Shown here in pieces: positions 8,532 to 63,563 of a stretch of DNA of 64,000 nucleotides. The DNA is from a virus. The DNA lies in IMG/VR virus record IMGVR_UViG_3300049979_000188, one strand, 5' to 3'. The position numbers were made by a program, and so were the translations under genes. The number at the start of each line of letters is the position of its first letter. The first letter of the stretch is position 1. The notes beneath the pieces are model-generated. The model did not search any database, was not told the DNA's origin, and was given only the letters and a program-made list of their open reading frames with translations.

Positions 8532-8535
8532 CGCG

Positions 8536-27092: not shown

Positions 27093-27216
27093 CTTACGAA
27101 AAACCCTGGCTCAAAAAAAGTCAGGGTTTTTTACGCCTCAGCGTAACCTTTCCTCCGGGCTGGGCGTAAAAGGACATGTAAGCGGCAACGGAGCGGCTTA
27201 CCTTACTCCTGCTGCA

Positions 27217-27555
27217 ATGGCTAAAGCTGCACAACCTAAATTTTTCACGCGTAGGGCGGCTGTCAACCCGGGCTTGCCTACTGCTAAACGCCACGTAGAC
27301 TACCTGGTTAAAGCCGCCACTCAGGCACGGGCACTGGCCTTACTGGAGCTGGTTAAAGTCCCTGGGCGCGGGCATAGTCTATATTATACCAACGCCCGTG
27401 AGTTTCGACTCTACTGGGTTACGCGCTCGACTGCGGAGGCCGATGCATCCATGCTTGAGTTGAGCTGTGATGCGCTCGAAGGTATCTGGTGGAAGCCGGA
27501 TATGGACCCGGACAGTGAGTATGTGTGCCTGTGGTATACTCCCATTACGGAATAA
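27217..27555 (+). CDS. Hypothetical cassette protein
   Basis: Own promoter and AACGGA leader. Confidence 0.8.
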   Translation: MAKAAQPKFFTRRAAVNPGLPTAKRHVDYLVKAATQARALALLELVKVPGRGHSLYYTNAREFRLYWVTRSTAEADASMLELSCDALEGIWWKPDMDPDSEYVCLWYTPITE

Positions 27556-27574
27556 ACATCCTTCGCTTACTCTT

Positions 27575-28093
27575 ATGCAAGACCCGAATTTTCAAACCCA
27601 CACACTGGCTGATAATAATCAAACCCTGGGCGCGCTGCGTAAGCTGCTCAATGAGCTAGCTGAGAAAGACCCATCCCTGGATGAGCTTAAGCTATGGCAA
27701 GGGACGGACTCGGGTGAGGGCTACCTGCGCCTGTGTACGGTTACGGTGGCCAACGCCCGCCACGTAGACTACGACGGCGACGATGCCGATGATGAAATGT
27801 TCTGCGTAGAGCCCGACGAGGAAGGACACCGGGAGGCTGATATGGGGCCTGGCTACGTACACCGAGAGCTTGACCGCCAGGGGAACCTTAACGGTTATAA
27901 GAACGTGCTGGTGCTCGGCGACCACCGCACCCCGCTTGACATTGCGCAGGCAATCACCAGCGAGCAGGAACGCCTGGCGAAACAAGCAGCTGAAAAAGAA
28001 GCGAAGGCCAAACGTGAGGCGCTTAAAAACGACCCCGAGTACCAACGCCTGCAAAAAGAGGCCAAGGAAGCACGTAAAAAATATGGTCTGTAA
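27575..28093 (+). CDS. Hypothetical protein, acidic centre and basic C-terminal helix
   Basis: Second cistron; start reset to MQDPNF. Confidence 0.75.
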   Translation: MQDPNFQTHTLADNNQTLGALRKLLNELAEKDPSLDELKLWQGTDSGEGYLRLCTVTVANARHVDYDGDDADDEMFCVEPDEEGHREADMGPGYVHRELDRQGNLNGYKNVLVLGDHRTPLDIAQAITSEQERLAKQAAEKEAKAKREALKNDPEYQRLQKEAKEARKKYGL

Positions 28094-28152
28094 GTGTAAC
28101 CTTTTCCCAGGGACCTGCGTAAAAGAACTCAGAAACCAACCTCCCCTTTCTC

Positions 28153-28545
28153 ATGGCCAAGCACCTGGAACCCGTCCCCTACGAATCGTTAATCGGCAAA
28201 CGCGTGCGCGTCTACCGCAACCTGCACAACTACGGCGGGGAGCACAAGGTCTTGTACTCGGTGCAGCACAAAGGGCTCGTGATTGCCCACGTACCGCAAA
28301 TTACCCTGGATGAGGTGAGCTTCTCAGTGCAGCCCGCTGGCCAGGCCAAGGTACGCCAAACCAAACGCAAGCAGGTCCACGCCTTTGTCAACGGAGTCGT
28401 GGCGGCACCCGGTCACGCCCTGGTGCGCAAGGTGAGCTACAACCCGTATCAGACCGATACCTTCGTGCTGGCCGGGCCGCTGGGCCAGGTGCCCGTGCTC
28501 GCGGCCGGGCGCATCAACATTACCCAGGTCGGGCTTTTTATTTAA
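28153..28545 (+). CDS. Conserved phage hypothetical protein
   Basis: Own promoter, AGAAACCAAC leader; RVRVYRNLH...KQVHAFVNG...SYNPY motif. Confidence 0.85.
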   Translation: MAKHLEPVPYESLIGKRVRVYRNLHNYGGEHKVLYSVQHKGLVIAHVPQITLDEVSFSVQPAGQAKVRQTKRKQVHAFVNGVVAAPGHALVRKVSYNPYQTDTFVLAGPLGQVPVLAAGRINITQVGLFI

Positions 28546-28636
28546 AAAAAGATTGCCCCGGCGTGTAACCTTACCGCCGGGGCCTGCGTAAAAGAACCAT
28601 CAACGGCAACGGAGCCGGGTCTCAGCTACTTTCTTC

Positions 28637-29536
28637 ATGTCTACTACCACGCAGCTTAAGCAGCTACAAGCTGAAATTGCGCTCTTACAAAATGTGCGTA
28701 ACTCGACTGAATACGTAGCATTAGAAGCAGAAATCCAGCAGCTACAAGGCCGCCTAAGGCAGGCAAAGCAGAATTACCAGGCAAGCGTAGCCGATGAAAT
28801 TGCGGCCAAGGAATCGGACATTAAGGCCCTTAAGATGCAGCAGCTTCGGGAAACCAATCCGGCTTTCCAATACTCCATACCGCTATTAAGTTGGTTTAAC
28901 CGGTGGGGACGTGGCATAGATTGGGGTCAGGGTGGGGTTCGCCTGCGCTGGGTATCCCCGAATCAAAACTGGGTGATTATCACCGCAGGTGGCGGTACGG
29001 CTGGACAAGGCACCCCAATGGGTACGGGTGCCTACTACTATGCGGCGGCGACGCACTATCTTTACCGGGTAGTAGATGGAGCTACGCACATGAACTCCAC
29101 GTCCAAATATCAGTTTTCCTTTGAGGGGCGGTTACTCAAGGCTACGAAAGAGGAATGGATAGCCTTTGCCCTCATCCAGGACGAGGGTTGCCCCTTCACG
29201 GAGAACCTGGACCGTTCAACACATGGCGGCTACCGGGTTGGAGACTACGTCTTTAACGAGATGCGTAGAACCTACGGTTTCATTTGGGAGCTGAATAACT
29301 ACCAACATAAGCCCACGGTTAGCTTCCGCGATGACCCATATTATAACCGTCCTATCGGCTACCCACTGGAACGAGTTGAAACGGTCCTACGCCTGGCTAA
29401 GCGCGTAGAGGAAATGGACTATCAAGGGATGTTTGACCTCGTCTCACCCGATGACAACCCGGCTAACCAGGCGCTGCGAGAAGTCCCCCCGACCTCTCCC
29501 CTACCCGACAAGAGCCTGGAAGGGTTTTTACTATAA
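28637..29536 (+). CDS. Hypothetical cassette protein with N-terminal coiled coil
   Basis: Own promoter and AACGGA leader; AT-richer codons. Confidence 0.85.
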   Translation: MSTTTQLKQLQAEIALLQNVRNSTEYVALEAEIQQLQGRLRQAKQNYQASVADEIAAKESDIKALKMQQLRETNPAFQYSIPLLSWFNRWGRGIDWGQGGVRLRWVSPNQNWVIITAGGGTAGQGTPMGTGAYYYAAATHYLYRVVDGATHMNSTSKYQFSFEGRLLKATKEEWIAFALIQDEGCPFTENLDRSTHGGYRVGDYVFNEMRRTYGFIWELNNYQHKPTVSFRDDPYYNRPIGYPLERVETVLRLAKRVEEMDYQGMFDLVSPDDNPANQALREVPPTSPLPDKSLEGFLL

Positions 29537-29634
29537 GGAGCAAAAGAATTTTTATTTTTACGTAACCTTTCCCGCCAGCCCGGCGTAAAAGGACCAGCAA
29601 CGGCAACGGAGCCGGGGCTTAACCAACCAGTATC

Positions 29635-30423
29635 ATGCGTACGATTGAAGAGGCAATTGCCAACCTGCTAAAAGAGAATACGGGTAGCCCAATGGGTGAC
29701 CATGCTGGCTACGCGGGCGGGCGACACTGGGAGAAAAACCAGGGTCGTAACTTTGCCTCGCAGCCCAGCTTTGTGGTGGAGGGCTACACCCGTGGGGAAA
29801 CGGACGAGGCAGGCTGGGCACCCATTCAAAACAGTGACCTGGGCTTTACCATCAATGTCTATCACTACTTGGTTAGCCGGCTGCGGGTGACTTCGGAAAG
29901 TGAAAACGAAAATGCCCTGCTGCAAACCCTGCTGCAAGCGGACCCCGACGACTTGTACGAAATCGGCTACATGCAGCAGTTTGCCACCAGCCGCAACACG
30001 GATACGGATAACTACTGCATCTGGCTGAGCCCGCTCAACACCTACAACGGCGAGTGCCTGCTGAGCCAGACGCTGCAATTCAGCATCTACGACCACGAGG
30101 GCACCAGCTTTATCGTGCTACAAATCCACGGCGGGGCCGACGTGCGCGGTGGCTATACCACGCCCCAGGTATTCGAGATTGCCAATGACGAGCGCGATGG
30201 GTTCGTGACGGGCTATATCGGCGTAGACGCTACGGCTCAGGTAGACGGCGAAACCGTACGCTGGAACTCGGAGAGCGGCTACGGCGGCTCGTTTAGGGCC
30301 GTAGACGACTCGGACGACGTGGAGGTACCCGAACTGGAACTTGAATGGCACGCCGAAACCAACACCTTCCGCCTGGCCCAAACCCACGAGGCCGTAAGCT
30401 TCTACCCCGAGTATAGCCTCTAA
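29635..30423 (+). CDS. Hypothetical acidic cassette protein
   Basis: Own promoter and AACGGA leader; LQIHGGADVRGGYT motif. Confidence 0.85.
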   Translation: MRTIEEAIANLLKENTGSPMGDHAGYAGGRHWEKNQGRNFASQPSFVVEGYTRGETDEAGWAPIQNSDLGFTINVYHYLVSRLRVTSESENENALLQTLLQADPDDLYEIGYMQQFATSRNTDTDNYCIWLSPLNTYNGECLLSQTLQFSIYDHEGTSFIVLQIHGGADVRGGYTTPQVFEIANDERDGFVTGYIGVDATAQVDGETVRWNSESGYGGSFRAVDDSDDVEVPELELEWHAETNTFRLAQTHEAVSFYPEYSL

Positions 30424-30549
30424 GCTACTAAAAAACCCTGACCCTAAAAAAGTCAGGGTTTTTTTCTATGAAGATGTAACCTTTCCCAGGGCTCTGCGTA
30501 AAAGGACATGTAAGCAGCAACGGAGCTGCTCACGCTAAAGACCCTTACC

Positions 30550-31077
30550 ATGTCTCACATCATTCGCTACCGCATTAGCCCGGCCCACTTGCTAGCTGAA
30601 CAAGCTTATAGCGCCACCTACCAAGGCAGACAACATGAACTGGCTACTGAAGTAAACCCGGCTTACCCACTGCTGGCTATTGGCTCGGGGGATACACCCG
30701 AGGATGCATACCAGTCGGCAGTTGGCCAAATCGACGGCATGGAGGATGCCCAAGGCGAGCATTTTGCTTATTCAAAACTACCCAAAGCTGGGCCTAAACG
30801 TATCGTAGGTAAAAACGAACTGCTGTCTCCCGAAGAAGCCGTAGCAACGCAATATTTTGTCTTGATTCGTTTCGCCTTGAGTGGGGGTGACGAAACGGAA
30901 AAGTCATATACGGTTAAGGTGCGCTTGACTGGGGGTCGTTGGAGCCGGTTTGCCTGGCGCATTGCTAAAGAAAAGGTAGAGGATGCGCTGGCGCATTTAC
31001 GTAAGACGCTCGGACCCCACGAGACGAAGGTGCTCGAAATAAAAGGCCCCGTGCTTGAACGTCCTACGTGGTACTAA
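30550..31077 (+). CDS. Hypothetical cassette protein
   Basis: Own promoter and AACGGA leader. Confidence 0.85.
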   Translation: MSHIIRYRISPAHLLAEQAYSATYQGRQHELATEVNPAYPLLAIGSGDTPEDAYQSAVGQIDGMEDAQGEHFAYSKLPKAGPKRIVGKNELLSPEEAVATQYFVLIRFALSGGDETEKSYTVKVRLTGGRWSRFAWRIAKEKVEDALAHLRKTLGPHETKVLEIKGPVLERPTWY

Positions 31078-31168
31078 TTTTTTTCACTTGAAACGTAACC
31101 TTTCTCCCAGCTCCGCGTAAAAGGACATGTAAAGCGCAACGGAGCACTTTACGCTAACGACCCCTACC

Positions 31169-31933
31169 ATGAAAAGCATTGAGAAGTACAAGTTCAGTGG
31201 CCTGACCATCAAAATCAAACAGGACACGGACCCCAGCAACCCGCGCAAAGAGTTTGACAACGTGGGCACACTGGTATGCTGGCACCGCAATTATGAGCTG
31301 GGCGACGAGCCCGAGTTTGGTGGGGGCCGCCGGGGTTTGCCGAGCCTGGACGCGGGTGAGTACCGCCTGGCGATGGCCGAAGTATACGACCCCGGCATTA
31401 GCGACTGGACGGATACGGCCATGAGCCGGTTGTGGGATAAAGCCCAGGCCGCTTCGAGCAGCAGCATTGGCGTGCTCACCGATGCCGAAATGCGGGCATA
31501 CGAGCTAGCGGAGTTGGAACTGCGCCAGCGGGTAGGGGAGCGGGTGCAGCGCGTACTGGATACGCACTACATCGTGCTGCCGGTCTACCTCTACGACCAT
31601 TCCGGCCTGGCCATGCGGGTAGCTGACTTTGGGGACCGTTGGGACTCGGGCCAGGTGGGCTTTATCTACTGCACCCGTGAGAAGGCCCTGCGCGAATGGG
31701 GCAACGGCGGGCTGGTGCTGAGTAAGAAACGCCGCCAGCAAGCCGTTACCTACCTGACGGGGGAAATCGAGACGTACCACGAGTACCTCAGCGGGCAGGT
31801 ATACGGCTACGAAATCAAGCGCAAGGGCGAAGGCGTGATTGACTCGTGCTGGGGCTTCTACGGCGGGGTAGACTACGTGAAAACCGAAGCCGAAGCAGCG
31901 GCTGCCTGCCTGGTAGAAACCGTTGAAGCATAA
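31169..31933 (+). CDS. Conserved phage hypothetical protein
   Basis: Own promoter and leader; LPVYLYDHSG, WDSGQVGFIY, YLSGQVYGY, DSCWGFYG. Confidence 0.85.
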   Translation: MKSIEKYKFSGLTIKIKQDTDPSNPRKEFDNVGTLVCWHRNYELGDEPEFGGGRRGLPSLDAGEYRLAMAEVYDPGISDWTDTAMSRLWDKAQAASSSSIGVLTDAEMRAYELAELELRQRVGERVQRVLDTHYIVLPVYLYDHSGLAMRVADFGDRWDSGQVGFIYCTREKALREWGNGGLVLSKKRRQQAVTYLTGEIETYHEYLSGQVYGYEIKRKGEGVIDSCWGFYGGVDYVKTEAEAAAACLVETVEA

Positions 31934-32039
31934 GGGCAATGGACCCCGCCCTAACCAGCGGGGTCTTTTTTTTGTTATTTTGTAACCTTTTCCCAGGGCT
32001 CGCCGTAAAAGGACTATCAACCAACTACTCACCCCTACC

Positions 32040-32498
32040 ATGCAAGTAACTACCACCGCCACACTGTGTGTCTTTCGTGATGCCCGAGGTAACGTGCAGA
32101 CCCGTGTACTAGCTGACTTCTACGACAACATCTGCCTAGATGGCTACGATGCCCAAGGTGTCCGCCAGTCGTATGACGACGAGGCCCGCCACATTGGGGA
32201 ATGGCTTGAAAAGCACCCCAGCCTGAACTACAAGAGCCAGGAGATAGCCGTTGTGGCCGACGTGAAGCTGCCCCGTCGGTTTGCCGATGGGGCCCTGGTG
32301 CAGCACCACGGGCTGGACGTGACGGTGATAAACTACCAAGAGGAAGCGGAGCAGTACGTGGTGGAAGTACCCGCTTATGAGGTATTCGATTTTACGGTAA
32401 AACTCAAGAACGGTCAGCCGCGCCCGGTACTGCGCGTGGAGCCAGCCAGTCAATACAAAGCACCCGAGGCCGAGCTTAACTACCCTGAAAAATACTAG
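32040..32498 (+). CDS. Hypothetical cassette protein
   Basis: Own promoter, ATCAACCAAC leader. Confidence 0.85.
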   Translation: MQVTTTATLCVFRDARGNVQTRVLADFYDNICLDGYDAQGVRQSYDDEARHIGEWLEKHPSLNYKSQEIAVVADVKLPRRFADGALVQHHGLDVTVINYQEEAEQYVVEVPAYEVFDFTVKLKNGQPRPVLRVEPASQYKAPEAELNYPEKY

Positions 32499-32590
32499 TA
32501 AAATTACGGCGAGCCTTGTAACCTTTCCCCAGGGCTCGCCGTAAAAGGACTATCAACGGCAACGGAGCCGCTTAACTAACCCCCGCTAGT

Positions 32591-33415
32591 ATGTACACCA
32601 TCCAGCAACTCACCCTCGACCAGCAAAGCCAGGCCGGTGGGCGTCAAGTACGCGTCACCTTTGCCAACGGCCAGACCTATACCGTAGCCGATGCGGGCGG
32701 GGACTACTGCTTCCAGAACCTAGCGTACTCGCTCACGGCCGAGACGCTCAACGAGAACACGGCCTTGCGCGAGGCCCTTACGGCCGTGGGTGAGTTTTAC
32801 CGCTTCTGGCTCAGCGGCAACGAGGACCCGATGGTGCTCATGCTGCGCAAGGATACCCCGGTGCTGCACGAGCTCTACGAAAGCGAGGAAACGAATAACA
32901 CGCCGGAGCAAGCGGCGGACCCTGCGCCTGGCAAAGACTATCCGTACGCCCTGGCTTGTTCTATCTTCACCACGCATAAAGACCCTGATTTGGTGGAGCG
33001 GGCACTCATTTACGAAGATGATGCGGTAGCCTTATTACGCGCAATCCGCCAGGCCGGGCTCTCGGATGCGCTTCCCGTCATCCTTGGCACGGGGGCTGAG
33101 TCGATTGAGCTAAGCATGAATGAGAAAGGGTTCTACTTCCTGACCCAAGTAGATACTACGCCTGATTCGGAGGACAAGCTTTACGCCGATGTACGGCGCT
33201 TTTGGCTGCGCCGCAAGACCGAGCCCGTGCAAGACGTGATAACGCTGGAAATTGGCGAATTTGCCGCCCTGGTGAACCGCATTAGCAAACTACGTGGCAC
33301 ACGCTCGTATCACCCCGGTGAAGATATTGAGCTTCCCATTGCGGGCGTCTTCCTAGTCAAGCGCGAGCACGCGGTAAACACCAAGCCCAAGCTCTACCGC
33401 ACCGGCTTGATTTAA
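32591..33415 (+). CDS. Hypothetical cassette protein
   Basis: Own promoter and AACGGA leader. Confidence 0.85.
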   Translation: MYTIQQLTLDQQSQAGGRQVRVTFANGQTYTVADAGGDYCFQNLAYSLTAETLNENTALREALTAVGEFYRFWLSGNEDPMVLMLRKDTPVLHELYESEETNNTPEQAADPAPGKDYPYALACSIFTTHKDPDLVERALIYEDDAVALLRAIRQAGLSDALPVILGTGAESIELSMNEKGFYFLTQVDTTPDSEDKLYADVRRFWLRRKTEPVQDVITLEIGEFAALVNRISKLRGTRSYHPGEDIELPIAGVFLVKREHAVNTKPKLYRTGLI

Positions 33416-33539
33416 GTAGTGAAACCCTGACTCCTAAAAAAAGTCAGGGTTTTTTTCTGTAAAGTTGTAACCTTCTCCCCGAGCCTGTCGTAAAAGGACA
33501 TGTAAAGCGCAACGGAGCACTTTACTAACCCTAAGCGGT

Positions 33540-34049
33540 ATGTTTAACGTTAGAACCACCACCCTGGCCAAGCGCACCCGTAATGTACTGGCCCACCTGC
33601 CGGGCTACCAGCGCCGCCAGCGCTTCGACATTACGCTGGACCTGCACCAAATCGGTGAGCAGTCCCCCTACTTCTCGGCCACGGTGAGCGGCCGCTCCTT
33701 CGGGGGCTGCAACCACGAGCTCATCCTCCGGCACTGGCCCCAGGCTAAATGCATCGTGGACCTGCACTTGTGCGACATGGACGGGGCACCCATGCACACG
33801 GAGGCCAACGCCCTCTACCACGCCCAGGCCTACCTCCACCAGCAAAAGGCCCATTACCCAGCCGCCAAGGGGCTCGACTACCTGGCTTCGCACCTACGCA
33901 TCAGCCAGGACCAGGCCCTGGACCTACTGGCTGACCTGGTAGACAAAACCCCCGACGTGCAGGCCCTGCTCATGAAGGCCTTTTGCGACCAGCAGCGCCC
34001 CCGCTGGCAGCAGGAGGCTGACCAGGCCCTGGCCTTCCTCAACGCCTAA
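33540..34049 (+). CDS. Conserved phage hypothetical protein
   Basis: Own promoter and leader; GGCNHE...LHLCDMDGAPMH...NALYH motif. Confidence 0.85.
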   Translation: MFNVRTTTLAKRTRNVLAHLPGYQRRQRFDITLDLHQIGEQSPYFSATVSGRSFGGCNHELILRHWPQAKCIVDLHLCDMDGAPMHTEANALYHAQAYLHQQKAHYPAAKGLDYLASHLRISQDQALDLLADLVDKTPDVQALLMKAFCDQQRPRWQQEADQALAFLNA

Positions 34050-34150
34050 ATCAAGTGCCCAGGCGTAAAAAACCTGGGCTTTTTTTCCCAAAAACCCTAA
34101 CCTTTTCGCCGAGACGGGCGTAAAAGGACTCAGAAACCAACCACACCCCC

Positions 34151-34564
34151 ATGTCAACGCTCACTTCCCTGGCCCCGGCGGCGGCCCTGCCGCAACCGCC
34201 GCTTACCGACCACGCCTTTGCCACGCCCCACGGGCAGCTGCTGCGCGCGCTGCGTCCCTTTCTGCGCCGCACGAGTCTGCCCTTGCTCGGGGCGGCCCAG
34301 CACCTGGCCCGGCCCTTAACTGCCCAGGTGCTCATGCCCGGCCAGGTGGGCATTTCGCTCGACGGTCGGCGCGTAAGCTTGCCCATTGGCACCCAGCTGC
34401 TGGCCACCAGCATCGCCCCCACGACGGGCTACACCCGCGTCGTAGCCACGGAGCCAGCTAGCACCCGGCCCCTGTTTGTGAGCGCCGACGTGTTGCAAGC
34501 CTCGTACGACGAGGAAGGGGCCAGCCTGCTGGAACAAGTACTCACCCGTTTACCCATCTGCTAG
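34151..34564 (+). CDS. Hypothetical cassette protein
   Basis: Own promoter (CTAAC variant), AGAAACCAAC leader. Confidence 0.8.
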   Translation: MSTLTSLAPAAALPQPPLTDHAFATPHGQLLRALRPFLRRTSLPLLGAAQHLARPLTAQVLMPGQVGISLDGRRVSLPIGTQLLATSIAPTTGYTRVVATEPASTRPLFVSADVLQASYDEEGASLLEQVLTRLPIC

Positions 34565-34567
34565 GTT

Positions 34568-34945
34568 ATGGCTACTACTGCAAGCACGCTCGTCCGCCTG
34601 CGTACGCTGGCTGAGCTCGTCGAGGACCAGCTCGCCTTCACCCCCAACACCCGGCTCGACTACTACCACCAGGCCCCGCAGCTACGGGTCTACTACGGGG
34701 TTACCCCCGTGGTCACGCTGCGCGCCGATGGCCAGCTAACCGTGACCAACGGCGGCGACTTTAGTACTGACTGCCGCGACTTCATCAACGAGCTGCTCAC
34801 CCTGCTGGGGCGGCCCGAGCGTTTCCAGGACGGACGCGAACGCGGCTGGCCTATCCTCCACGGCCCGCACCAGGGTCCGTGCGCGCTGAGCATCAGCCGC
34901 CAGGGGCAGCTGCAAATCAAGCACACCTGGCCGGCCTTAAGTTAA
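34568..34945 (+). CDS. Hypothetical protein
   Basis: Second cistron, 3 nt after the previous stop. Confidence 0.75.
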   Translation: MATTASTLVRLRTLAELVEDQLAFTPNTRLDYYHQAPQLRVYYGVTPVVTLRADGQLTVTNGGDFSTDCRDFINELLTLLGRPERFQDGRERGWPILHGPHQGPCALSISRQGQLQIKHTWPALS

Positions 34946-37323: not shown

Positions 37324-37420
37324 GTTTTTTTAGTATAAAGCGTAACCTTTCTCCCATCCCTGCGTAAAAGGACATGTACCCGGCAACGGAGCCGGGTACA
37401 CAACCCCCCTTCTCTTCCCA

Positions 37421-37783
37421 ATGGACATTACGGCCACCCCCGCCCTCACCCTGAACGTACCTGAGTTCTTTGCCCGCCTTGATTTTCAAGTGTGGCTCAA
37501 CTCCACCATCAGCTCGCTCAACGGCAGCCAGCGTGCTACCTGGCACAACCTGGGCACGGCCCCGAGCGAGTTCTCGGACACGTTCATCTACTACGAAGCC
37601 TCGGCTACCAAGGGACAGCCCGTAGCCCAGGTAGTAGCTGACATCCTGGCTGGGGAAACCCAGGTGGACGGCTCGGACTTCGATGAGCTCTTTCCCCGTG
37701 AGCTCAAGGTGGAAGTCTACAAGGCCTGCGAGTCGGTTGGCTTTTACGAGGGCATCATCCGCTTCACGAACCTCCCCGAATAA
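37421..37783 (+). CDS. Hypothetical cassette protein
   Basis: Own promoter and AACGGA leader. Confidence 0.85.
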   Translation: MDITATPALTLNVPEFFARLDFQVWLNSTISSLNGSQRATWHNLGTAPSEFSDTFIYYEASATKGQPVAQVVADILAGETQVDGSDFDELFPRELKVEVYKACESVGFYEGIIRFTNLPE

Positions 37784-38772: not shown

Positions 38773-39048
38773 ATGCAATCCATCACCAACATCAACCTGG
38801 ACGACCAACTGCGTCAAGCCGGCACGGGCCACGTCGCCGTGGTAGAGACCAAGCCGGACCCTGAGGACCGCCACGATAAGCCCAACTACGAAGTGATGGG
38901 TGCCATCCAGGCCCTACTGCAACGAGCGAACCTCGAAAGCGAGAACGGCTTCACGGTCGTCATTGATGTGCAGGGCAGCACGGAAGCAGGGCGTATCCTT
39001 CAGTGCGTCGTACTTGACAATTGCCTCGGGCCACTAGCCATTCACTAA
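38773..39048 (+). CDS. Hypothetical cassette protein
   Basis: Own promoter and AACGGA leader. Confidence 0.8.
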   Translation: MQSITNINLDDQLRQAGTGHVAVVETKPDPEDRHDKPNYEVMGAIQALLQRANLESENGFTVVIDVQGSTEAGRILQCVVLDNCLGPLAIH

Positions 39049-39090
39049 CAACTTGCCCGGGGCAACGGAGCCCCGGGCTACTATTTTTCC

Positions 39091-39426
39091 ATGAAAGATA
39101 CCCCCCGCATCCTGGCCACCTACGTGGCCCAGCGCATCGCCGAAAACGGTGACGTAGAAAACACGGGCAAGACCCAGGACTTCAACGTTACCAAAACCAT
39201 CCTCAATATGCCCGTGGCCGAGATTAAGGCCCTGGAAGACGACCAGTACGAAACCGATGCCTTGGTAGCCGAAGCCTCGCGCTGGGCGCGGGCACGCTCG
39301 CTTAAGCACCCCTTTGCCATCCGCGTGGAAGACGACCTGGCCCTGTTCTTCGAAGGGTTCGGCTGTAACCTGCTCACCCTCACCCAGGAGCAAGTGGACC
39401 GCATCCGCACGGAGCTCGGCTACTAA
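39091..39426 (+). CDS. Hypothetical protein
   Basis: Second cistron with its own AACGGA hairpin but no promoter. Confidence 0.85.
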   Translation: MKDTPRILATYVAQRIAENGDVENTGKTQDFNVTKTILNMPVAEIKALEDDQYETDALVAEASRWARARSLKHPFAIRVEDDLALFFEGFGCNLLTLTQEQVDRIRTELGY

Positions 39427-51218: not shown

Positions 51219-51315
51219 AAAAACCTCGGGGGAACGTAACACTTCCCCCGAGCCCTGCGTATACTACCTTACCAACCGGGCACCAATGCCCACTTAACCC
51301 CCCACACCCCCTTTT

Positions 51316-55596: not shown

Positions 55597-55716
55597 CCAA
55601 AGGAGTCCCGGTAAAAAATACCGGGACTTTTTTTAGGTATAAACGTAACCTTTCCCCCGAGCCCTGCGTAAAAGGACCATCAACGGCAACGGAGCCGCTG
55701 TAAAAATTACATTTTT

Positions 55717-56010: not shown

Positions 56011-56076
56011 AGAAAAAAAGCCGCCTAACCAGCGGCTTTTTTGTAACTTTCTCCCCTAGCCCTGCGTAAAAGGACC

Positions 56077-56658
56077 ATGAACCGCACCACTCCCCACCGC
56101 GTCACGCCCACGAGCCGCCTGCCCAAGCAGGGCGTGCTCCCGGCCCGAATCTACAACCAGGAAAAGCTGGCCGAATGGTACCGAGCTTGCGGGGCTATGC
56201 GCGGGGACGACCGTGAGCCCGTGCTGAGTACGTACGTATTTTGCAGCTTTCGCACGGGCAAGCCCTACGCCAGCGGCTACATTGCCTTTTTCAACGGCAC
56301 GGCCAGCCGCCACCGCCGCCTGAGCGACGCGCTGGCTATGCTCGTGCAACTGGAAGAGAACTACCATCTCTACTTTGCCACCAAGCAGCGGCGGCTGCAA
56401 GACCTGAGCTTTGACCCCAAAACCCGCGAGCAAACCGACCGGGAATTGCAAGCTGCCATTGACGGGGAAGAAAACGGGTGGAGCGACCTACTACGCTACC
56501 AGCGCGAGCAACACCCCGAGGGCAAGCTCGGGGGCTGGCGTGGCGACAAGGAACGGGCGGCCCGGGCCCGTGCCAACCGCAAGGAGGAACCCGTCCGTAT
56601 CGGCCGCCACAAGCCCGGTACCTGGATAGACCAGGATGGACACTTTCGCCAACTATAA
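56077..56658 (+). CDS. Hypothetical basic protein, leaderless
   Basis: ATG directly after CGTAAAAGGACC. Confidence 0.8.
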   Translation: MNRTTPHRVTPTSRLPKQGVLPARIYNQEKLAEWYRACGAMRGDDREPVLSTYVFCSFRTGKPYASGYIAFFNGTASRHRRLSDALAMLVQLEENYHLYFATKQRRLQDLSFDPKTREQTDRELQAAIDGEENGWSDLLRYQREQHPEGKLGGWRGDKERAARARANRKEEPVRIGRHKPGTWIDQDGHFRQL

Positions 56659-56739
56659 AAGAGAACCCCGACCCTAAAAAAGTCGGGGTTTTTCTTACGT
56701 AAATGTAACCTTTTCCCAGGGTTCGGCGTAAAAGGACGC

Positions 56740-57363
56740 ATGAAGCACGAGCTGACAACCCCCGAGAGTCTCAACGCCCACATTGATACGCTAGTCGAAC
56801 TGGTGCAGGTGCTGCCCCTGACGGGCGTGAGCATCCTGACCGGCGGCAACGGCCGGGGCAAGAGCCTGGTGCGCCAGCAACTGGTGCACCCCACCAAAAA
56901 GGCCGGCCTACGCCTGGCCTCCACGTCGCTGGAAAAGCGCACCAGCAGCAACCCCGACCTGGGTTGCCTGAGCGGCATGAACCGCGACCTGGCCTGGCTG
57001 CCGAGCTCGGTGGCCACCCTCGACCAGGTAGAGGGCGTGCTTAAGGCCCGCTACGGCGTGCCCACCTACGTGGTAATTGACGAGCCCGAGCTGGGCATGG
57101 GCGAGGAAACGGTGCTGGCCCTGGGCACCTACCTCACGCAGCTGCTGGCCGAGCGGCCCGAGGCCATCGTGGGCGTGCTCATTATCACGCATAGCCGCCA
57201 GCTCGTGGCCTCACTGGCCTACGACAACTTCTACAACCTGGACGGGTACGAAACCGCCCAGCAGTGGCTCACGCGCCCCGTAGTGGCCGCCGACCTGGCC
57301 GCCCTGCGCCTGAACGCGCTGAGCGATGCGATTCAGGCCCGCAGCCGCCAGGTAGAAATGTAA
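56740..57363 (+). CDS. Small P-loop ATPase (ABC/AAA_21-like), leaderless
   Basis: Walker A GGNGRGKS, Walker B VVIDEPELG, IITHS. Confidence 0.85.
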   Translation: MKHELTTPESLNAHIDTLVELVQVLPLTGVSILTGGNGRGKSLVRQQLVHPTKKAGLRLASTSLEKRTSSNPDLGCLSGMNRDLAWLPSSVATLDQVEGVLKARYGVPTYVVIDEPELGMGEETVLALGTYLTQLLAERPEAIVGVLIITHSRQLVASLAYDNFYNLDGYETAQQWLTRPVVAADLAALRLNALSDAIQARSRQVEM

Positions 57364-57457
57364 AAAAAAAGCCCTGGGAGCGTAACCTTCTCCCAGGGCT
57401 CGCGTAAAAGGACATGTAAGCCACAACGGAGTGGCTTATACTAGCAGTTTTCACATC

Positions 57458-57733
57458 ATGGGACCATACGCCATCACCATCAACCGCAAGAAAGAGGTGG
57501 TAAACATTCCCTTCACTAAAACCATCGAAGATGGCCCGCTCACGGTGAAGCAACTGGCGAAAATAGCCGGGGAGCACCCCTTCGACGTAGAGCAGGATAA
57601 CTATGACCGCTACGTGGTCAAGGTCCACGCTACACGCCTGGAAACCGACCTGGAGCAAGCCGCACGCGTGGCTAAGGAAGAGGCGTATATGGTAGAGTAC
57701 AAGCGTCGGAAAAATAATCAGACGAAAGCGTAA
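57458..57733 (+). CDS. Hypothetical cassette protein
   Basis: Start reset to MGPYAI. Confidence 0.8.
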   Translation: MGPYAITINRKKEVVNIPFTKTIEDGPLTVKQLAKIAGEHPFDVEQDNYDRYVVKVHATRLETDLEQAARVAKEEAYMVEYKRRKNNQTKA

Positions 57734-57804
57734 CCTTTCCCCCGAGCCCTGCGTAAAAGGACAACCAGCGGGCTCAGTTGCCCGCTGGCTAACTCCCTCC
57801 CCCG

Positions 57805-57873
57805 ATGACTCAGCAACAAGCTGCCGACCTGGCCACCGCCAAGCTCGCGAAAAATAAATTGGTTTACATGTAA
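57805..57873 (+). CDS. 22-aa micropeptide MTQQQAADLATAKLAKNKLVYM
   Basis: Hand-translated; own promoter at 57730, 9-bp leader hairpin with loop TCAGTT; stop is in the next -35 box. Confidence 0.55.
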   Translation: MTQQQAADLATAKLAKNKLVYM

Positions 57874-57942
57874 CCTTGCCTAAGGCTAGCACGTAAAAGG
57901 AGTATTACCGGCAACGGAGCCCGTAATACTCCTTTCTAGCCC

Positions 57943-58209
57943 ATGAACCTCTCCCCCGCCCTGCCTGCTACCGGCTGCCTGACTACCCGCGCTTTTCACA
58001 AGCTGCAACAGGCCCACTACGACCAGGCCTGCGTCACGGCCCGCCAGAACCAGCAGCCAGCCCCCTACCAGTGGGACTACTTTTTCGGGAACCGCTTCAC
58101 CAATAAGCCCAAGCAAAACGGGTACGTGGCCTGGAGCCCGCGCAGCATCGTCCGCGCCCCGCAAAAGGAGCGGGCGCTCAACGCGATAAAGCCGCTGGGT
58201 ACCCGGTAA
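57943..58209 (+). CDS. Hypothetical cassette protein
   Basis: Own promoter and AACGGA leader. Confidence 0.8.
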   Translation: MNLSPALPATGCLTTRAFHKLQQAHYDQACVTARQNQQPAPYQWDYFFGNRFTNKPKQNGYVAWSPRSIVRAPQKERALNAIKPLGTR

Positions 58210-58296
58210 AAAAAGGAAAAAAAGTTGGTTGGTTTCTGTAACCTTTCCGCCAGCCCGGCGTAAAAGGATGTAGAAACCAACCAAACCCCTTTTCTC

Positions 58297-58872
58297 ATGT
58301 ACGAAACCCTTGCCGCCACCGCCCTCGCCGCCAACGCTAAAGAAGCCCTGGCCCACACCCTGACTAACGAGGCCCTGGTGGCCTTCCTTTTCGGGGGTAA
58401 GGCCATCTTCACCCTCTTTAACGAGCAGACGCTCACGCGCTACACCTACCTGGTCGAAAAAAAGGGGTTTGTCTTTCAGGATGCCACTACCGGGCGCGAC
58501 GTAAAGGGCACCCGCTACTGGGTTAACCTGCTCACCGGTCCCCATAATACGAAGGACTACACCTACCTGGGTTGCCTTAAAAACGAGACGGAACGCACCT
58601 TTACCCTCTCGCCTAAGTCCCGGGTAGGGGACGCGGATTTACCCAGCGTACAGGCCATTTCCTGGCTGCTCAAGCGCATCGAAGATTACGAAAAAGGCCA
58701 GCGGGAGGACGTAACGGGCGGCCCGCTCAAGTTCTACCACGCAGGCCGCTGCGGACGCTGTGGGGCGGCGCTAACGGTGCCCGAATCCATCGAAAACGGC
58801 CTCGGCCCTGAATGCACCAAGTACGTGGGCAAGGGCATCGAAAAAAAGGTGCGCCACAAACAGCTTAGCTAA
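58297..58872 (+). CDS. DUF6011-like Zn-finger protein
   Basis: GRCGRCGAALTVPESIENGLGPEC; AGAAACCAAC leader. Confidence 0.8.
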   Translation: MYETLAATALAANAKEALAHTLTNEALVAFLFGGKAIFTLFNEQTLTRYTYLVEKKGFVFQDATTGRDVKGTRYWVNLLTGPHNTKDYTYLGCLKNETERTFTLSPKSRVGDADLPSVQAISWLLKRIEDYEKGQREDVTGGPLKFYHAGRCGRCGAALTVPESIENGLGPECTKYVGKGIEKKVRHKQLS

Positions 58873-58993
58873 GTAAAAAAAGCCCCGACTACTCGGGGCT
58901 TTTTTTTTGTCTATCATGTAACCTTTCCCCAGGGCTCGACGTAAAAGGACATGTAAGCAGCAACGGAGCTGCTCACCCAACCCCTCCCCAACC

Positions 58994-59296
58994 ATGCGTA
59001 CCTTGTTCACCGCCGCCCTGCTGTTTGCCGCCACCTTCACCGCCTCGGCCGCTACGCCCCTCTCAACGCCCGAGCGCGAGGCCCTCACGCAAATTACGGT
59101 GCAGTACAAGCTCAGCGCCTGCCAGGCCCAGGACGTGCTCCCGCTCGTGCAAGCCTACGTGGCCCAGCGGGCCGAGCTCGTGGCCGCCATCTGTGGCCAG
59201 GGCAGCGAGGCCAGCCACCAGGCCCAGCTTAACGCCCTGCACGCCCGCTTTCAGCAGCGCCTGCACCAACTGCTCAAAGCTTGCCCCGAGCGCTAG
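58994..59296 (+). CDS. Small secreted helical protein
   Basis: Signal peptide MRTLFTAALLFAATFTASA-A. Confidence 0.8.
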   Translation: MRTLFTAALLFAATFTASAATPLSTPEREALTQITVQYKLSACQAQDVLPLVQAYVAQRAELVAAICGQGSEASHQAQLNALHARFQQRLHQLLKACPER

Positions 59297-59406
59297 GCAG
59301 CCGCCAGAAATACCCGCCTCATCAGCGGGTATTTTTTTAGGGTAAACGTAACCTTTGGGCCGGGCTCCGCGTAAAAGGAGGCAGAAACCAACTAACCCCT
59401 TTTTGT

Positions 59407-59763
59407 ATGTCAATCACTTCTGAGATGAGCCGCCTGGGCATACCCGGTAAAGAAAAGAGCACCACCAACGCCTGGGGCTTCGCCGGTTGGTCCGGCAAGG
59501 AATACCGGCTACCCAACGGGGCGCTGCTTTGCCAGGGACGCTACTTCTACCGCCACGCCAACCCCACCGCCTACCTGCGTCTCTACCTGCCCACGCCGGA
59601 GGGCGAGCAGCAGCCGAGCCCGCTAAGCAGCAAAACCAAAATACTGGCCTACCTGCAAGCCCTACCCGTGCCGGAGGCCGTCGTAGAGGCCCGCCTGCTG
59701 GCTGAGGCCATCGCCCTCACCAAGCCCGCCCGTCAGACGTTTACCCAGGGCCGGCTGTTCTAA
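59407..59763 (+). CDS. Hypothetical cassette protein
   Basis: Own promoter, AGAAACCAAC leader. Confidence 0.85.
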   Translation: MSITSEMSRLGIPGKEKSTTNAWGFAGWSGKEYRLPNGALLCQGRYFYRHANPTAYLRLYLPTPEGEQQPSPLSSKTKILAYLQALPVPEAVVEARLLAEAIALTKPARQTFTQGRLF

Positions 59764-59886
59764 CCACTAGCCCCGGCTTAAAAAATAAGTCGGGGTTTTT
59801 TTCTCCCCTAACGTAACCTTTCCCGCGAGTCCTGCGTAAAAGGACATGTAACCGCAACGGAGCGGTTGCCCTTACCTCTACCTGTT

Positions 59887-60270
59887 ATGCCTACTACCAT
59901 CGCTCAAATCCGCGCCCACAACACCCGCGTGGGCCACTGCTTCTTTAGCCGCCAAACCATGCGCATGTGGGGCAGCAAGGTGCTGGCCACCGTCAACCAG
60001 GGGCCGGGCGGCATCTACTTCGTCACCAGCGAAGACAACTACAACAAGACGCGTCGCGAGTTCAGCGTGCGCCGCTATGACCCCGAGACGGGCGACGTGC
60101 GCACCGCTTTCTACGGCAAGCCCTACGAGTCCAAACGTTACTCCACCCCGCAGCAGGCGCGCAGCGTGGCCACCATCCTGGCCCAGTTCGGGGAGCCCAC
60201 CACGGCCCCGGTGGAGCCGGAAGGGGAAAGCTACCCGCTGGGTCACATGCAAGGACGCGGGGCCGCCTAG
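59887..60270 (+). CDS. Conserved phage hypothetical protein
   Basis: Start reset to MPTTIAQ; HCFFSRQTMRMWGS...YFVTSE motif. Confidence 0.85.
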   Translation: MPTTIAQIRAHNTRVGHCFFSRQTMRMWGSKVLATVNQGPGGIYFVTSEDNYNKTRREFSVRRYDPETGDVRTAFYGKPYESKRYSTPQQARSVATILAQFGEPTTAPVEPEGESYPLGHMQGRGAA

Positions 60271-60394
60271 CCGCCTAAAAAACCCCATCAAAAAAAGATG
60301 GGGTTTTTTCTTCCTCGCTTGTAACCTTTCCCTACTCACCCCGTAAAAGGACTCACCAGCGGCAACGGAGCCGCTCGTAAATTTCCCTCTTCCT

Positions 60395-60736
60395 ATGGCA
60401 ACCACCACTGCCCCCGCCCCCACTACTACGGTCGATTTGCGCGACCTCGATGCCACGCTGGCCGTGCTCACCAAAGGGCTCAAGAAAAGCCGTAACTGCT
60501 TGGTGACGCGCTACGGCAACGAGCTGCTCGTCTACTTCTACAACACGGCCATTGCCAAGGTCGTAGGCGGGCAGCTTTTCCTCTTTAACGGCGGCTTTGA
60601 AACCGTCGTTACCAAGGACCGCCTTAACAAGGTGCTGGAGGTGCTGGGCTCCCCCATCCGCGTCTATAGCCAGAACTACGACTGGCACCTCTCGCCCCAG
60701 GGTACCCGGTTCCAAGAAGGGGTGCAGGTAGCGTAA
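60395..60736 (+). CDS. Conserved phage hypothetical protein
   Basis: Own promoter and leader; GGFETVVTKDRLN motif. Confidence 0.85.
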   Translation: MATTTAPAPTTTVDLRDLDATLAVLTKGLKKSRNCLVTRYGNELLVYFYNTAIAKVVGGQLFLFNGGFETVVTKDRLNKVLEVLGSPIRVYSQNYDWHLSPQGTRFQEGVQVA

Positions 60737-60785
60737 AAAAAGTCCCGGCCAGTAACGAACCGGGGCTTTTTTACGTAGCCTGGGC

Positions 60786-61202
60786 ATGTTTACTACTTCC
60801 ATCCCTTTCCCGGCCCTTACCCTGCTACGGCAGGCAGCCACGGCCGAGGGCGTGCCCGTTACGGCCTACACGCTCACCAGCCAGTTAATGGTTCTTAACA
60901 GCCTCGTAGACGCTGGCCTGGCCCAGGCTACCAGCAGCGACGGCAAGGCCGGCTACAAGGCAACAACTACTGGCCTGGCTGAGCTGGCCCGCCTCGACGT
61001 GCTACAGGATGGGGCAACGCTCATCAGCGCCACCGGCCCGGTAATGCCCGTAACAGCCCCGCCAGCCGCTCCCACGCCGCCGCCTACCCCTACGCCAGCC
61101 GCCGTAGTTACGGAAGGCGTAAACGAAGCGGACGAGGCACCCGGCGAAGAAGCCCCGGCCGCCGAGCAGGAATCGGATGAGCCCGAAGAGCCCACCAAGT
61201 AA
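60786..61202 (+). CDS. Hypothetical protein with Pro/acidic low-complexity tail, near-leaderless
   Basis: Class-B promoter at 60752. Confidence 0.8.
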   Translation: MFTTSIPFPALTLLRQAATAEGVPVTAYTLTSQLMVLNSLVDAGLAQATSSDGKAGYKATTTGLAELARLDVLQDGATLISATGPVMPVTAPPAAPTPPPTPTPAAVVTEGVNEADEAPGEEAPAAEQESDEPEEPTK

Positions 61203-61328
61203 CCCCCCTAAAAGCCCTGACGCAAAAAAAGTCAGGGCTTTTTTACGTCTAACTGTAACCTTTCCCCAGGGGTCCGCGTAAAAGGACTCATGCAGCGCAA
61301 CGGAGCGCTGCCCCTTTTACTACCCCCC

Positions 61329-61649
61329 ATGAAAAGTCTGGCCACCAAGACCCGCAACGCTATCACCAAGGAAATTAAAGAACTTGGTACTTACCACACG
61401 AGCGTACCAGTGACGGCTTTGCTTATGTCCTTGAAGCTGCACGGAGTGGTGGCCTTGGACGAAGACAATACCGAGTGGCGTGGCTTTGTAATGGGTGAGA
61501 ACAGCAGCACCATTCTGCGCCTAGCCGAGTTGTCCACCGCCTACCAGCACGCCAGCGGTGTAACGATGTACCAGCCCCTGCGTACGGCCCTGGCTTTGCA
61601 GTGGTACAAAATCAGCACCAAGTTTGAAATCAACGCGTACCTCAGCTAA
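61329..61649 (+). CDS. Hypothetical cassette protein
   Basis: Start reset to MKSLAT. Confidence 0.8.
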   Translation: MKSLATKTRNAITKEIKELGTYHTSVPVTALLMSLKLHGVVALDEDNTEWRGFVMGENSSTILRLAELSTAYQHASGVTMYQPLRTALALQWYKISTKFEINAYLS

Positions 61650-61768
61650 CCAGATTGGCCCCACGAAAATGGGGCCATCTTTTTTTCAGTTATTTCGTAA
61701 CCTTTTCCCAGGGCTCGCCGTAAAAGGAGTATGCAGCGCAACGGAGCACTGCTAAAAATTCCCCCAAT

Positions 61769-62242
61769 ATGTCAGCTACCACCACCGCCGCCCAAGACCA
61801 GCTCGCCGCTCAGCACCGCCAGGCCGCCCGCAACAACCAGACCTATACCGACCTGGCGGCCAAGCGTCTCAAGGGCCACGGCCTGACCCTGACGGACGGA
61901 GCCTATCAACAATCGGCTGAGGGCGTACTCAACAACCTACTCTACCGGGCCGTACGGGATGCAAACGCCGCCCACATGGCCGGTACCGACTGGATTGAAT
62001 CGTACGATGCCCCGCGCCCGGGCCTGCTGGCCGGAGTTGTAATCGCCCGCCTCTACAACGGGGTAGACGAAGTACTGCGCCAGCAAAAGCAATACAACGG
62101 CCAGCCCATGAAAATCGCCGAGCTCCAAAAGCTGCTCGACCTGCTGGCCCCACTGGCCGCCAGCCTGGACCCGCGCCAGGAAAGCATCGAGTCCACCCTG
62201 CGCGAAACCGAGTACCAAGCCAAGCTACGCAGCGAAGACTAA
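61769..62242 (+). CDS. Hypothetical helical cassette protein
   Basis: Own promoter and AACGGA leader. Confidence 0.85.
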   Translation: MSATTTAAQDQLAAQHRQAARNNQTYTDLAAKRLKGHGLTLTDGAYQQSAEGVLNNLLYRAVRDANAAHMAGTDWIESYDAPRPGLLAGVVIARLYNGVDEVLRQQKQYNGQPMKIAELQKLLDLLAPLAASLDPRQESIESTLRETEYQAKLRSED

Positions 62243-62368
62243 GTACCTACCAGCCCCGACCACTAAGTCGGGGCTTTTTTTTTATCTTTATACGTAACCT
62301 TTCCCAAAGGCTCCACGTATAAGGACCATGCCGCGCAACGGAGCCCGGCCCTCTTACTTTCCCCTACC

Positions 62369-63070
62369 ATGTTGTCTGCCGAAATCGCTACCGTTCGCCT
62401 CGCCCTGCTCGCTGCTGGCATTACCTCTACTACGGTACTAGCCAGCTATACCCACCTCACGCAGACCGAACAGCTACAAACTTACGAAGTAGCGGCCTGG
62501 TACACGCGTTACGAGTTGCCGGCCGGGCAAACCGTGCCCGTGTACGCGCAGCTAGAAGAGACCTACCGTAAGGGTATGCCCGCGCTCTTCTACTCGGCTA
62601 CGCTAGCCGCCGTGCAGGTCGAAGACCATTGCCCCAGCCTCTTTGGTGGCTGCCCTGTCCCTGGTAGTGCACCTAAAGTACCTACTGGTCCCGTCGCTAC
62701 TACGCGTACTATCGGCGGACACGGTACCCACTTCCCCCATTTTGCCGCTCAGCCAGGCGTGGTACTTACGCCCGAGGGCGAGCTGTTCCTGGCCCTGGTG
62801 CAACCCCTCTACGACGCGTATCTGGCCGACGTGGCGGCTCGCCAGGCGCGTATCGAGGCCCAGGCTGCCCTGGAGGCCCAACAGCTCCTGGAGGCGCGTA
62901 AACCGGCTTCTGGTGACCGTGTGCGGGTATACCATTGCGGCAAGGGTAGTAACGCCACGGTAGAGCGCTACGATGCGGGGTCTAAGTACTGCCACGTACG
63001 CACCGACCACGGCACTACTAGTATGCCCGATGTGATAAGCCTGGTTTACCTGGATGAGGTGCCCGCTTAA
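62369..63070 (+). CDS. Hypothetical cassette protein, possible C-terminal SH3/KOW-like fold
   Basis: Own promoter and leader; GDRVRVYH...ATVERYD...CHVRTD. Confidence 0.8.
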   Translation: MLSAEIATVRLALLAAGITSTTVLASYTHLTQTEQLQTYEVAAWYTRYELPAGQTVPVYAQLEETYRKGMPALFYSATLAAVQVEDHCPSLFGGCPVPGSAPKVPTGPVATTRTIGGHGTHFPHFAAQPGVVLTPEGELFLALVQPLYDAYLADVAARQARIEAQAALEAQQLLEARKPASGDRVRVYHCGKGSNATVERYDAGSKYCHVRTDHGTTSMPDVISLVYLDEVPA

Positions 63071-63163
63071 TTTTTTTTTACGTGGAGCCCGTAACCTTTT
63101 CTCAGGGCTCCACGTAAAAGGAGTATGCAGCGCAACGGAGCGCTCCTAAAAACCTCCTTTACC

Positions 63164-63445
63164 ATGTCAGTTACCACCACCACCAAAACCTGGGACCAAG
63201 CTTACAACGATTACGAGAACCTGCACCCCAACGGCCACGTAGGCTACGCCTACGAGCAACCCGGCGACAAGTGGCCCCTGGCCACCGTAGCCCTGCACAA
63301 TGCCACGCCCGAGGAAGCCGCCATCTGCGCCGAGGCCCTGGCCCACGGCGTGAACTGGGAGGCCTGGCCCGTCCACTTCACGCAGCTCAGCCACTGGGGC
63401 GGCGGCCCGCGCAAGAGCCCAACCAGCAACTACACCGGCAACTAA
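63164..63445 (+). CDS. Hypothetical cassette protein
   Basis: Start reset to MSVTT. Confidence 0.8.
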   Translation: MSVTTTTKTWDQAYNDYENLHPNGHVGYAYEQPGDKWPLATVALHNATPEEAAICAEALAHGVNWEAWPVHFTQLSHWGGGPRKSPTSNYTGN

Positions 63446-63563
63446 GAGAAGTCCCGACCCTAAAAAGTCGGGACTTTTTTATCTTTTTTTGTAACCTTAC
63501 GAGTGGACCCTGCGTATAAAGACCATGCAGCGCAACGGAGCGCCGCCCAAAACTACCACCACC

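Follow-up and report, generated by a model that had tools for sequence, protein, structure and literature searches.

A promoter-linked leader hairpin with a conserved AACG loop in a phage cassette array and in plasmid-like DNA

Introduction

The element described here is a hairpin with a conserved loop that recurs in the leaders of an array of small genes in the virus record IMGVR_UViG_3300049979_000188 of IMG/VR, within a stretch of 64,000 nt (hereafter the window) of a source contig of 202,851 bp. Its closest described counterparts belong to systems of several kinds, the first of which are the promoter-early-stem-loop (PeSL) cassettes of T4-type phages (PMC2839356, PMC4122927). As in these, units of terminator, promoter and leader are repeated between small genes of unknown function in a hyperplastic region, and the leaders of orthologous genes are unlike, as shuffling would give. 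In fact, the window holds 65 intergenic promoters, 33 of them preceded by a terminator and 9 overlain by an inverted repeat; when PeSL-type recombination and mini-circles were looked for, orthologous genes were found to differ in leader and order, and the joints in the assembled contigs were accounted for by repeats. However, PeSL cassettes use a sigma70 promoter and a Shine-Dalgarno sequence, whereas boxes of the extracytoplasmic function (ECF) type and no Shine-Dalgarno are present here; furthermore, the stem-loop of a PeSL serves as a terminator and is located in or upstream of the promoter, whereas the window hairpin lies past the predicted +1, so that it would be transcribed, and carries a conserved loop; an A/C-rich spacer instead of a U tract comes after it.

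A second group comprises the 5'-terminal stabilizing stem-loops of ompA, papA and aprE, which have been reviewed together with the hindrance of RppH-type decay by paired 5' ends (PMC3997798). Here too, the predicted first nucleotide is at the stem base, and the ribosome landing zone stays clear of the stem. The element is most like a 5'-terminal leader hairpin, the conserved loop being an addition. Known stabilizers of this type require pairing and are not known to require a loop sequence, whereas here GC-AACG-NN-GC is conserved across unrelated elements. In phage-encoded sigma regulons, such as that of phiEco32 gp36 (PMC12276001), a phage sigma-like gene likewise stands beside many near-identical two-box promoters; this accounts for the promoter but not for the hairpin. 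Two phages described below, in the stretches examined, have the promoter without it. Repeated cis-elements in the leaders of genes of mobile DNA that act early or on entry are also described for lambda boxB/nut and for the establishment genes of conjugative plasmids (PMC6294495, PMC8708921). No candidate for an N-like protein was found among the 117 open reading frames (ORFs) of the window. The boxB loop is, in sequence and size, unlike that of the window hairpin.

CsrA/RsmE sites, with the consensus A/U-CANGGANG-U/A (PMC5864733), had been suggested as a lead by a first-pass annotation made from the letters of the window alone. The likeness consists of a 5' leader in which a variable stem is capped by a hexaloop and, in the version of this phage, of an ANGGA sequence; however, the register is off by one with respect to CANGGANG, the GGA is lost in the homologues and the site lies far from the start codon. 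CsrA was found in 0/5 genomes of the probable host family, in which the controls were detected, and in 0/117 window ORFs, and the lead is not supported. The literature searched, in which few subscription papers were covered, holds no description of the hairpin motif or of a Hymenobacter phage. A cassette array with a phage sigma factor is of a known kind; what appears to be new is a leader hairpin with a conserved loop common to mobile elements.

The hairpin and its conserved core

The sequence AACGGA occurs 56 times on the + strand of the window and 5 times on the − strand. As the paired core of a hairpin it is present in exactly 48 copies, all on the + strand with loops between 27187 and 63534, against 0.2 expected (maximum 1) in 100 dinucleotide shuffles; the first-pass estimate of about 48 was thus accurate, and the five stems that it quoted (37385, 46001, 47605, 52930, 57425) are all as written. 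The hairpins (27176–63550, + strand) have stems of 4–12 bp that vary around the core GC-AACGGA-GC, and their first loop bases are at 27187, 28608, 29605, 30519, 31138, 32561, 33511, 35012, 35802, 36369, 37385, 37997, 38743, 39064, 39488, 40041, 40376, 41124, 42398, 42896, 43435, 44036, 44730, 46001, 46405, 47605, 47988, 50277, 50799, 51827, 52312, 52708, 52930, 53447, 53974, 54664, 54976, 55688, 57425, 57913, 58962, 59856, 60364, 61299, 61740, 62337, 63134 and 63534.

That the stem covaries, as had been claimed, is borne out by the alignment of the 48 copies, in which the five column pairs with the highest mutual information after average product correction are all helix pairs, both partners vary in 8/9 helix pairs, and 82.9% of the cells are paired, compared with 56.6% after shuffling and 26–40% when the alignment is slid. 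Since copies within one genome are paralogues, they were also merged into 11 stem families, for which pairing is 0.83 against 0.48, and 10 copies from outside the window were tested apart, with pairing of 0.62 against 0.40 (p=0.0008). A covariance model scores the 48 copies at 23.7–37.6 bits, a match by construction, and its best independent site (14.7 bits) is the inverted copy described below. The loop is open in the predicted fold of 45/48 leaders. None of the Rfam 15 covariance models matches the window at its gathering score, and the 28 weak matches at E<=10 fall mostly on terminators, in agreement with the proposal of an undescribed, strand-specific structured leader element.

The tolerance of G-U pairs, which had been offered as a sign of RNA, does not serve this purpose: the internal non-Watson-Crick pairs are A-C/C-A (13), C-C (6), G-U (5) and G-G (2), and the − strand folds better than the + strand in 36/48 hairpins, which may be explained by the A/C-rich coding strand. 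As the G-U argument fails, the case for RNA rests on position and on orientation, which with respect to the gene is 48:1. The loop, reported as invariant, is constant in the 48 copies but only inside this genome; outside the window the homologous loops are AACGAC, AACGAT, AACGAA, AACGTC, AACGCT and AACGGT, that is AACG-NN, and two variant copies within the window (51278 and 57763) had been missed. The last two loop bases, GA in 48/48 copies over the 11 stem families, are the ones that differ in other elements. GC-AACG-NN-GC is therefore kept as sequence and in orientation, while the stem is kept as structure and not as sequence. A likeness of GCAACG to a stretch of 16S rRNA was at chance level and was discarded.

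Promoters and distance to the start codon

A two-box sequence, GTAACC-N15/16-CGTAAA, lies upstream of the hairpins, and 65 such promoters are found from 25944 onward. The layout is that of an ECF sigma promoter, and the array (25944–63926, + strand) consists of about 65 units, each made of a promoter of this type, preceded in 33/65 by a terminator, a predicted +1, a leader and one small ORF. The hairpin stands behind 47/65 promoters; 47/48 hairpins sit 15–19 nt behind one, and the distance from the −10 box to the loop is 15–16 nt in 43/47. Furthermore, 44/48 copies have a pyrimidine-purine step (YR at −10/−9) 9 nt upstream of the loop, where ECF geometry puts +1, which suggests that the transcript begins at the stem base and has a paired 5' end. 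In the unit at 37342–37423, for example, the promoter (37342–37368) is followed by the hairpin (37374–37401, loop 37385–37390) and by the start codon at 37421. The first-pass annotation overlooked that transcripts made from a recurring ECF-type promoter probably start with the hairpin, and that the hairpin also occurs outside phages.

The distance from the loop to the start codon is 21–30 nt, and 22–26 nt in 41/48 copies (mean 24.2, standard deviation 1.7), as had been noted. It is less variable than the distance from the −10 box to the start in hairpin-less leaders (standard deviation 4.6; Levene p=0.0009) and than that from the stem end to the start (mean 16 nt, standard deviation 2.4); the hairpin is nevertheless held more tightly to the promoter than to the start codon. 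The spacing had been used to propose two missed starts, and GTG 35831 does open 158 codons and ATG 52737 opens 46, but neither product is confirmed by homology. In Flavobacterium, initiation is favored by low structure from −20 to +20 and by adenines at −3 and −12/−13 (PMC6847099; PMC7366714), so the stem lies at the edge of the ribosome landing zone. Ribosomes of Bacteroidia disregard Shine-Dalgarno sequences (PMC13000457), and a word of this kind precedes 1/65 cassette starts. The hairpin was also considered, and rejected, as a Shine-Dalgarno site, which needs to be unpaired and about 5–13 nt before the start: the GGAG of the window core ends 20–29 nt before it, has its last G paired and is missing from the homologous loops.

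Eighteen promoters (+ strand) have no exact core behind them (25944, 28096, 31982, 34097, 36810, 37799, 45146, 46818, 47160, 48647, 49214, 49558, 51236, 56043, 56705, 57730, 58238 and 59348), and most of these cassettes have an unstructured A/C-rich leader. This default leader opens with a conserved AGAAACCAACC-like word (for example at 28096, 36810, 45146, 48647 and 59348, and also in the related phages L005, L046 and L050), which may be a second, unstructured initiation signal. At 9 promoters (27143, 28565, 32518, 39997, 50756, 53931, 54933, 57382 and 63091) a strong inverted repeat places the −35 box in or beside its loop, in a PeSL-like manner. A second class of promoters, with GTAACG as upstream box and CGTATA, CGTAAA or CGTAGA downstream, serves genes of both strands at 2332–25470 (for example 22809, 24261, 25184 and 25436 on the + strand; 17217, 12381, 8539, 6375, 4154 and 2332 on the − strand), with hairpin-free leaders.

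Natural variants within the window

One copy has no promoter: it is intercistronic (39053–39093, + strand, loop 39064), begins 7 nt past the stop at 39048 and has the strongest stem of all, 21 nt ahead of ATG 39091, so that a link to translation or processing is possible without an adjoining 5' end. A variant copy with the loop ACCAAT (51278–51291, + strand) lies 28 nt ahead of ATG 51316, whose orthologue in the phage L050 has the same leader with the loop AACGAT; the window leader retains the stem. A further copy (57763–57790) is inverted in its loop, reading AACTGA, with one change, on the − strand. It heads an ORF of 22 codons (57805–57873) and is probably a decayed cassette, which suggests that the orientation of the hairpin matters. 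The copy at 33500–33527 (+ strand) precedes gene 33540, whose orthologue in L046 also bears the hairpin, with the loop AACGAA.

Occurrence in other phages and in plasmid-like DNA

Related phages were traced via eight homologues of the sigma-like protein encoded next to the hairpins, and the hairpin was found in two of them, which answers the earlier call for a search in other phages. In L005 it stands on both cassettes past the sigma gene, with the loops AACGAC and AACGAT; in the same locus (382–9162) the upstream box is GTAACA before the sigma gene and GTAACC after it, and only the downstream cassettes have the hairpin. In the phage represented by L046 and L050 it is found on 2 of about 35 cassettes, with the loops AACGAA and AACGAT, and the two genes are the orthologues of the window genes 33540 and 51316; six other hairpin-bearing genes of the window have homologues there with plain leaders. 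In L007, L008, L009 and L011 the stretches examined have the promoter but no hairpin, and the same holds for the stretches examined in two AT-rich jumbo phages, G002 and G003, with 55 and 59 such promoters, the latter having a weak sigma homologue directly ahead of its promoter array. The hairpin is, from these comparisons, an optional, swappable part of which only GC-AACG-NN-GC is conserved.

Homologues of window gene 49274 led to three syntenic contigs (L051, L052 and L053, of 208, 102 and 47 kb and 63–65% GC); the topoisomerase of L052, the only one tested, is nearest to those of Hymenobacter plasmids. In 20 kb of L051 all 5 core matches are on the coding strand and precede a start codon, by 23, 23, 25, 25 and 33 nt (a chance probability of about 1e-10); in L053 there are two copies, at 23 and 25 nt, and the loops found at 22–32 nt in L052 are degenerate. 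The upstream motif in these contigs is of the TTTGTG type, unlike the phage promoter, and the hairpin is thus independent of the phage sigma factor. These contigs form a family of large plasmid-like elements, either plasmids or integrative elements and probably of Hymenobacter, in which small genes of unknown function are likewise arrayed, each array being the family's own, with the TTTGTG-type promoter repeated ahead of them. Gene 49274, for which an atlas search gave no usable match, is common to the phages and these contigs (57–64% identity), which suggests that cassettes have been exchanged between plasmid and phage.

Two copies with the loop AACGAA, 29 nt before ATG, are present in L113, an unrelated 157-kb phage whose Shine-Dalgarno sequence is AAGGAG; they lie 16–18 nt behind a promoter related to that of the window, GTCAC-N17/18-CGTATA, and a third such promoter has no core match behind it. 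The two are paralogues and count as one case, which is suggestive. In L113 (560–620 and 1672–1730) a second small hairpin carries the Shine-Dalgarno sequence in its loop, and there is an inverted repeat that overlaps the promoter. Single copies per genome, with 7/8 pairing, were seen in L225 (loop AACGAA, ATG at 25) and L232 (loop AACGTC, ATG at 35), about 0.4 such cases being expected, by hand estimate, among 13 matches. Scans of viral, metagenome and genome collections with exact-cassette patterns gave no matches or chance matches. In the samples searched the hairpin is restricted to mobile DNA.

The sigma-like gene, phage and host

Next to the hairpins, the ORF at 26007–27092 (+ strand) encodes a sigma-70/ECF-like factor of 361 aa, the probable reader of the array promoters. 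No Pfam family matches it, but its language-model neighbors include sigma70_r2/ECF clusters at 0.94–0.95, nearly all the PDB fold matches listed are sigma factors (best E=0.016, none significant alone), and its homologues adjoin the same promoter arrays in related phages; its product probably reads the GTAACC/CGTAAA promoters. Its N-terminus (26007–26330) is about 100 residues longer than in the homologues, which have 233–273 aa and in one case 312. A putative promoter of the Bacteroidota housekeeping type (TAnnTTTG type; TTG...TAGCTTTG; consensus for comparison from PMC7366714) lies ahead of the gene at 25847–25877 (+ strand), and L006, L007 and L011 have retained its TAGCTTTG box. Upstream of the sigma region are short dispersed repeats, CCGACATTGTT / ACAATGTT (window 22780–23660, L006 170–300, L007 2100–2750), possibly close to an origin or genome end.

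Hymenobacter is the probable host, because the best match of a helix-turn-helix protein is to Hymenobacter plasmids and because only 1/65 cassette starts has a Shine-Dalgarno-like word. The contig probably derives from a leaf metagenome; among the sequencing runs listed none of RNA contained it, and a wastewater run with a share of 0.06, probably of DNA, was left aside. Over the 117 window ORFs Pfam recognizes 13 families only, including HNH_3, HTH_3, cREC_REC, superinfection exclusion GP17, DUF6011 and Phage_L5_gp82; RNA-binding families are absent among them, as is CsrA.

Possible functions of the hairpin

The explanation that we tentatively favor is a portable 5'-terminal RNA hairpin which would be read by a conserved component of the host and would protect the message or aid ribosome loading. 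Host RNA polymerase would make the phage sigma factor from the host-type promoter, and this factor, as its fold and the motif suggest, would transcribe each cassette from the stem base, leaving the 5' end paired, as the pyrimidine-purine step indicates. The stem is kept as structure and GC-AACG-NN-GC as sequence and orientation, and the spacing leaves about 16 unpaired nt for the ribosome. The AACG loop may be recognized by the small ribosomal subunit or by a general RNA-binding or decay factor of the host, and the net effect would be a longer-lived or better-translated mRNA for genes needed soon after entry; the phage has spread one version of the loop to three quarters of its cassettes. A positive element read by the host is ranked first because the hairpin is found behind promoters of different types, may be present or absent from one gene to the next, and has multiplied in a phage that needs high output. 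In particular, its presence on 2 of about 35 cassettes of L046/L050 fits an enhancer better than a regulon-wide switch.

Several observations weigh against this explanation. Copies within one genome are paralogues, and part of the conservation of the loop may be shared descent; the mismatch spectrum of the stems gives no preference for the RNA strand; and the copy at 39064 has no promoter. No enrichment was detected in 401 genomes of the class of a Bacteroidales metagenome-assembled genome or in 151 of the probable Hymenobacteraceae family, the latter assigned from GC content and list order, which is odd for a signal read by the host. Pattern matches in host genomes were close in number to those of the controls, and 20 that were inspected seemed to be coding sequence or chance matches; the loci of L051–L053, sought with one protein, did not turn up in those genomes, and neither enrichment nor leader copies were seen in three named plasmids of Hymenobacter.

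A site for a sequence-specific reader, as proposed in the first-pass annotation, is plausible, although a CsrA-like one is unsupported, and the reader could also act negatively. An RNA-binding repressor or endonuclease of the phage or plasmid might bind the loop and silence entry-phase genes later, in the manner of T4 RegA/RegB or of establishment-gene control in conjugative plasmids. We regard such a shut-off operator as rather unlikely, even though, in the samples searched, only mobile DNA carries the motif and the last two loop bases are fixed in 48/48 copies here and differ in other elements, as element-specific readers would predict. The window core also contains GGAG, which is the RegB target, but the homologous loops are without it; no RNA-binding family is present among the 117 window ORFs, yet these are a minor part of the 202,851-bp contig. 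Furthermore, a sister phage has the hairpin on 2 of about 35 cassettes only, and about 16 nt separate the stem end from the start codon, which places the stem outside the usual ribosome footprint.

Since the tightest positional constraint is to the promoter, the hairpin could alternatively be a signal to RNA polymerase, which as a nascent structure at +1 to +24 would aid promoter escape, set a pause or load an antitermination factor in a nut/put-like manner. Terminators separate about half of the cassettes, and the loop with its closing pair (GYAACG) resembles the −35 box of the phage itself. However, the same loop lies behind a different type of promoter in the plasmid-like contigs, read-through is unneeded where each gene has its own promoter, the promoter-less copy at 39064 exists and the distance to the start codon is constrained too; we consider this signal quite unlikely.

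It is distinctly improbable that the hairpin is a plain 5' stabilizer with no specific reader, in which any stem would work and the loop would be kept by descent, by gene conversion among cassettes or as a stable loop fold. The geometry is that of known 5'-terminal stabilizers, the cassettes have long identical stretches and stem families, and both in L052 and ahead of gene 51316 the stem persists with a degenerate loop. Nonetheless, the stems diverge freely around a constant AACG, in phage and plasmid-like DNA of 54–65% GC and apparently in another host group, and the distance to the start is less variable from the loop than from the stem end (standard deviation 1.7 vs 2.4).

Finally, a DNA-level site (repressor operator, cruciform or attC-like), or a CsrA or Shine-Dalgarno site, is most improbable: the core makes up one half of the palindrome GGCAACGTTGCC, pairing is better on the template strand in 36/48 and the version of this phage contains ANGGA and GGAG, but the stem covaries over 6–8 sequence-free pairs, the palindromic loop is never found in a leader, most sister-phage cassettes are without the hairpin, CANGGANG is unmatched (PMC5864733), GGA is not conserved, CsrA was not found in 5 genomes of the probable host family, and the GGAG stands 20–29 nt from the start codon, in a setting where Bacteroidia ribosomes ignore Shine-Dalgarno sequences (PMC13000457).

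Significance

The hairpin is an uncatalogued RNA motif with clean natural statistics, represented by 48 paralogues and by homologues in phage and plasmid-like DNA, and it comes with built-in natural controls in the form of loop-mutant, inverted, promoter-less and hairpin-less copies. Little is known on how the ribosomes of Bacteroidia, blind to Shine-Dalgarno sequences, choose particular mRNAs, and a portable module of 25 nt makes the question of ribosome targeting testable by reporter in Flavobacterium or Hymenobacter. A bolder possibility, which we regard as unlikely, is that the AACG hairpin is the ligand of a conserved component of the ribosome or the decay machinery of the host and acts as a Shine-Dalgarno-independent priority tag, by which the mRNAs of freshly entered phages and plasmids would be translated preferentially or protected; if true, a phylum thought to depend only on A-rich leaders free of structure would have a structured element that promotes initiation, and this element may act across phyla. 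The module could also be usable as an expression part for the phylum Bacteroidota.

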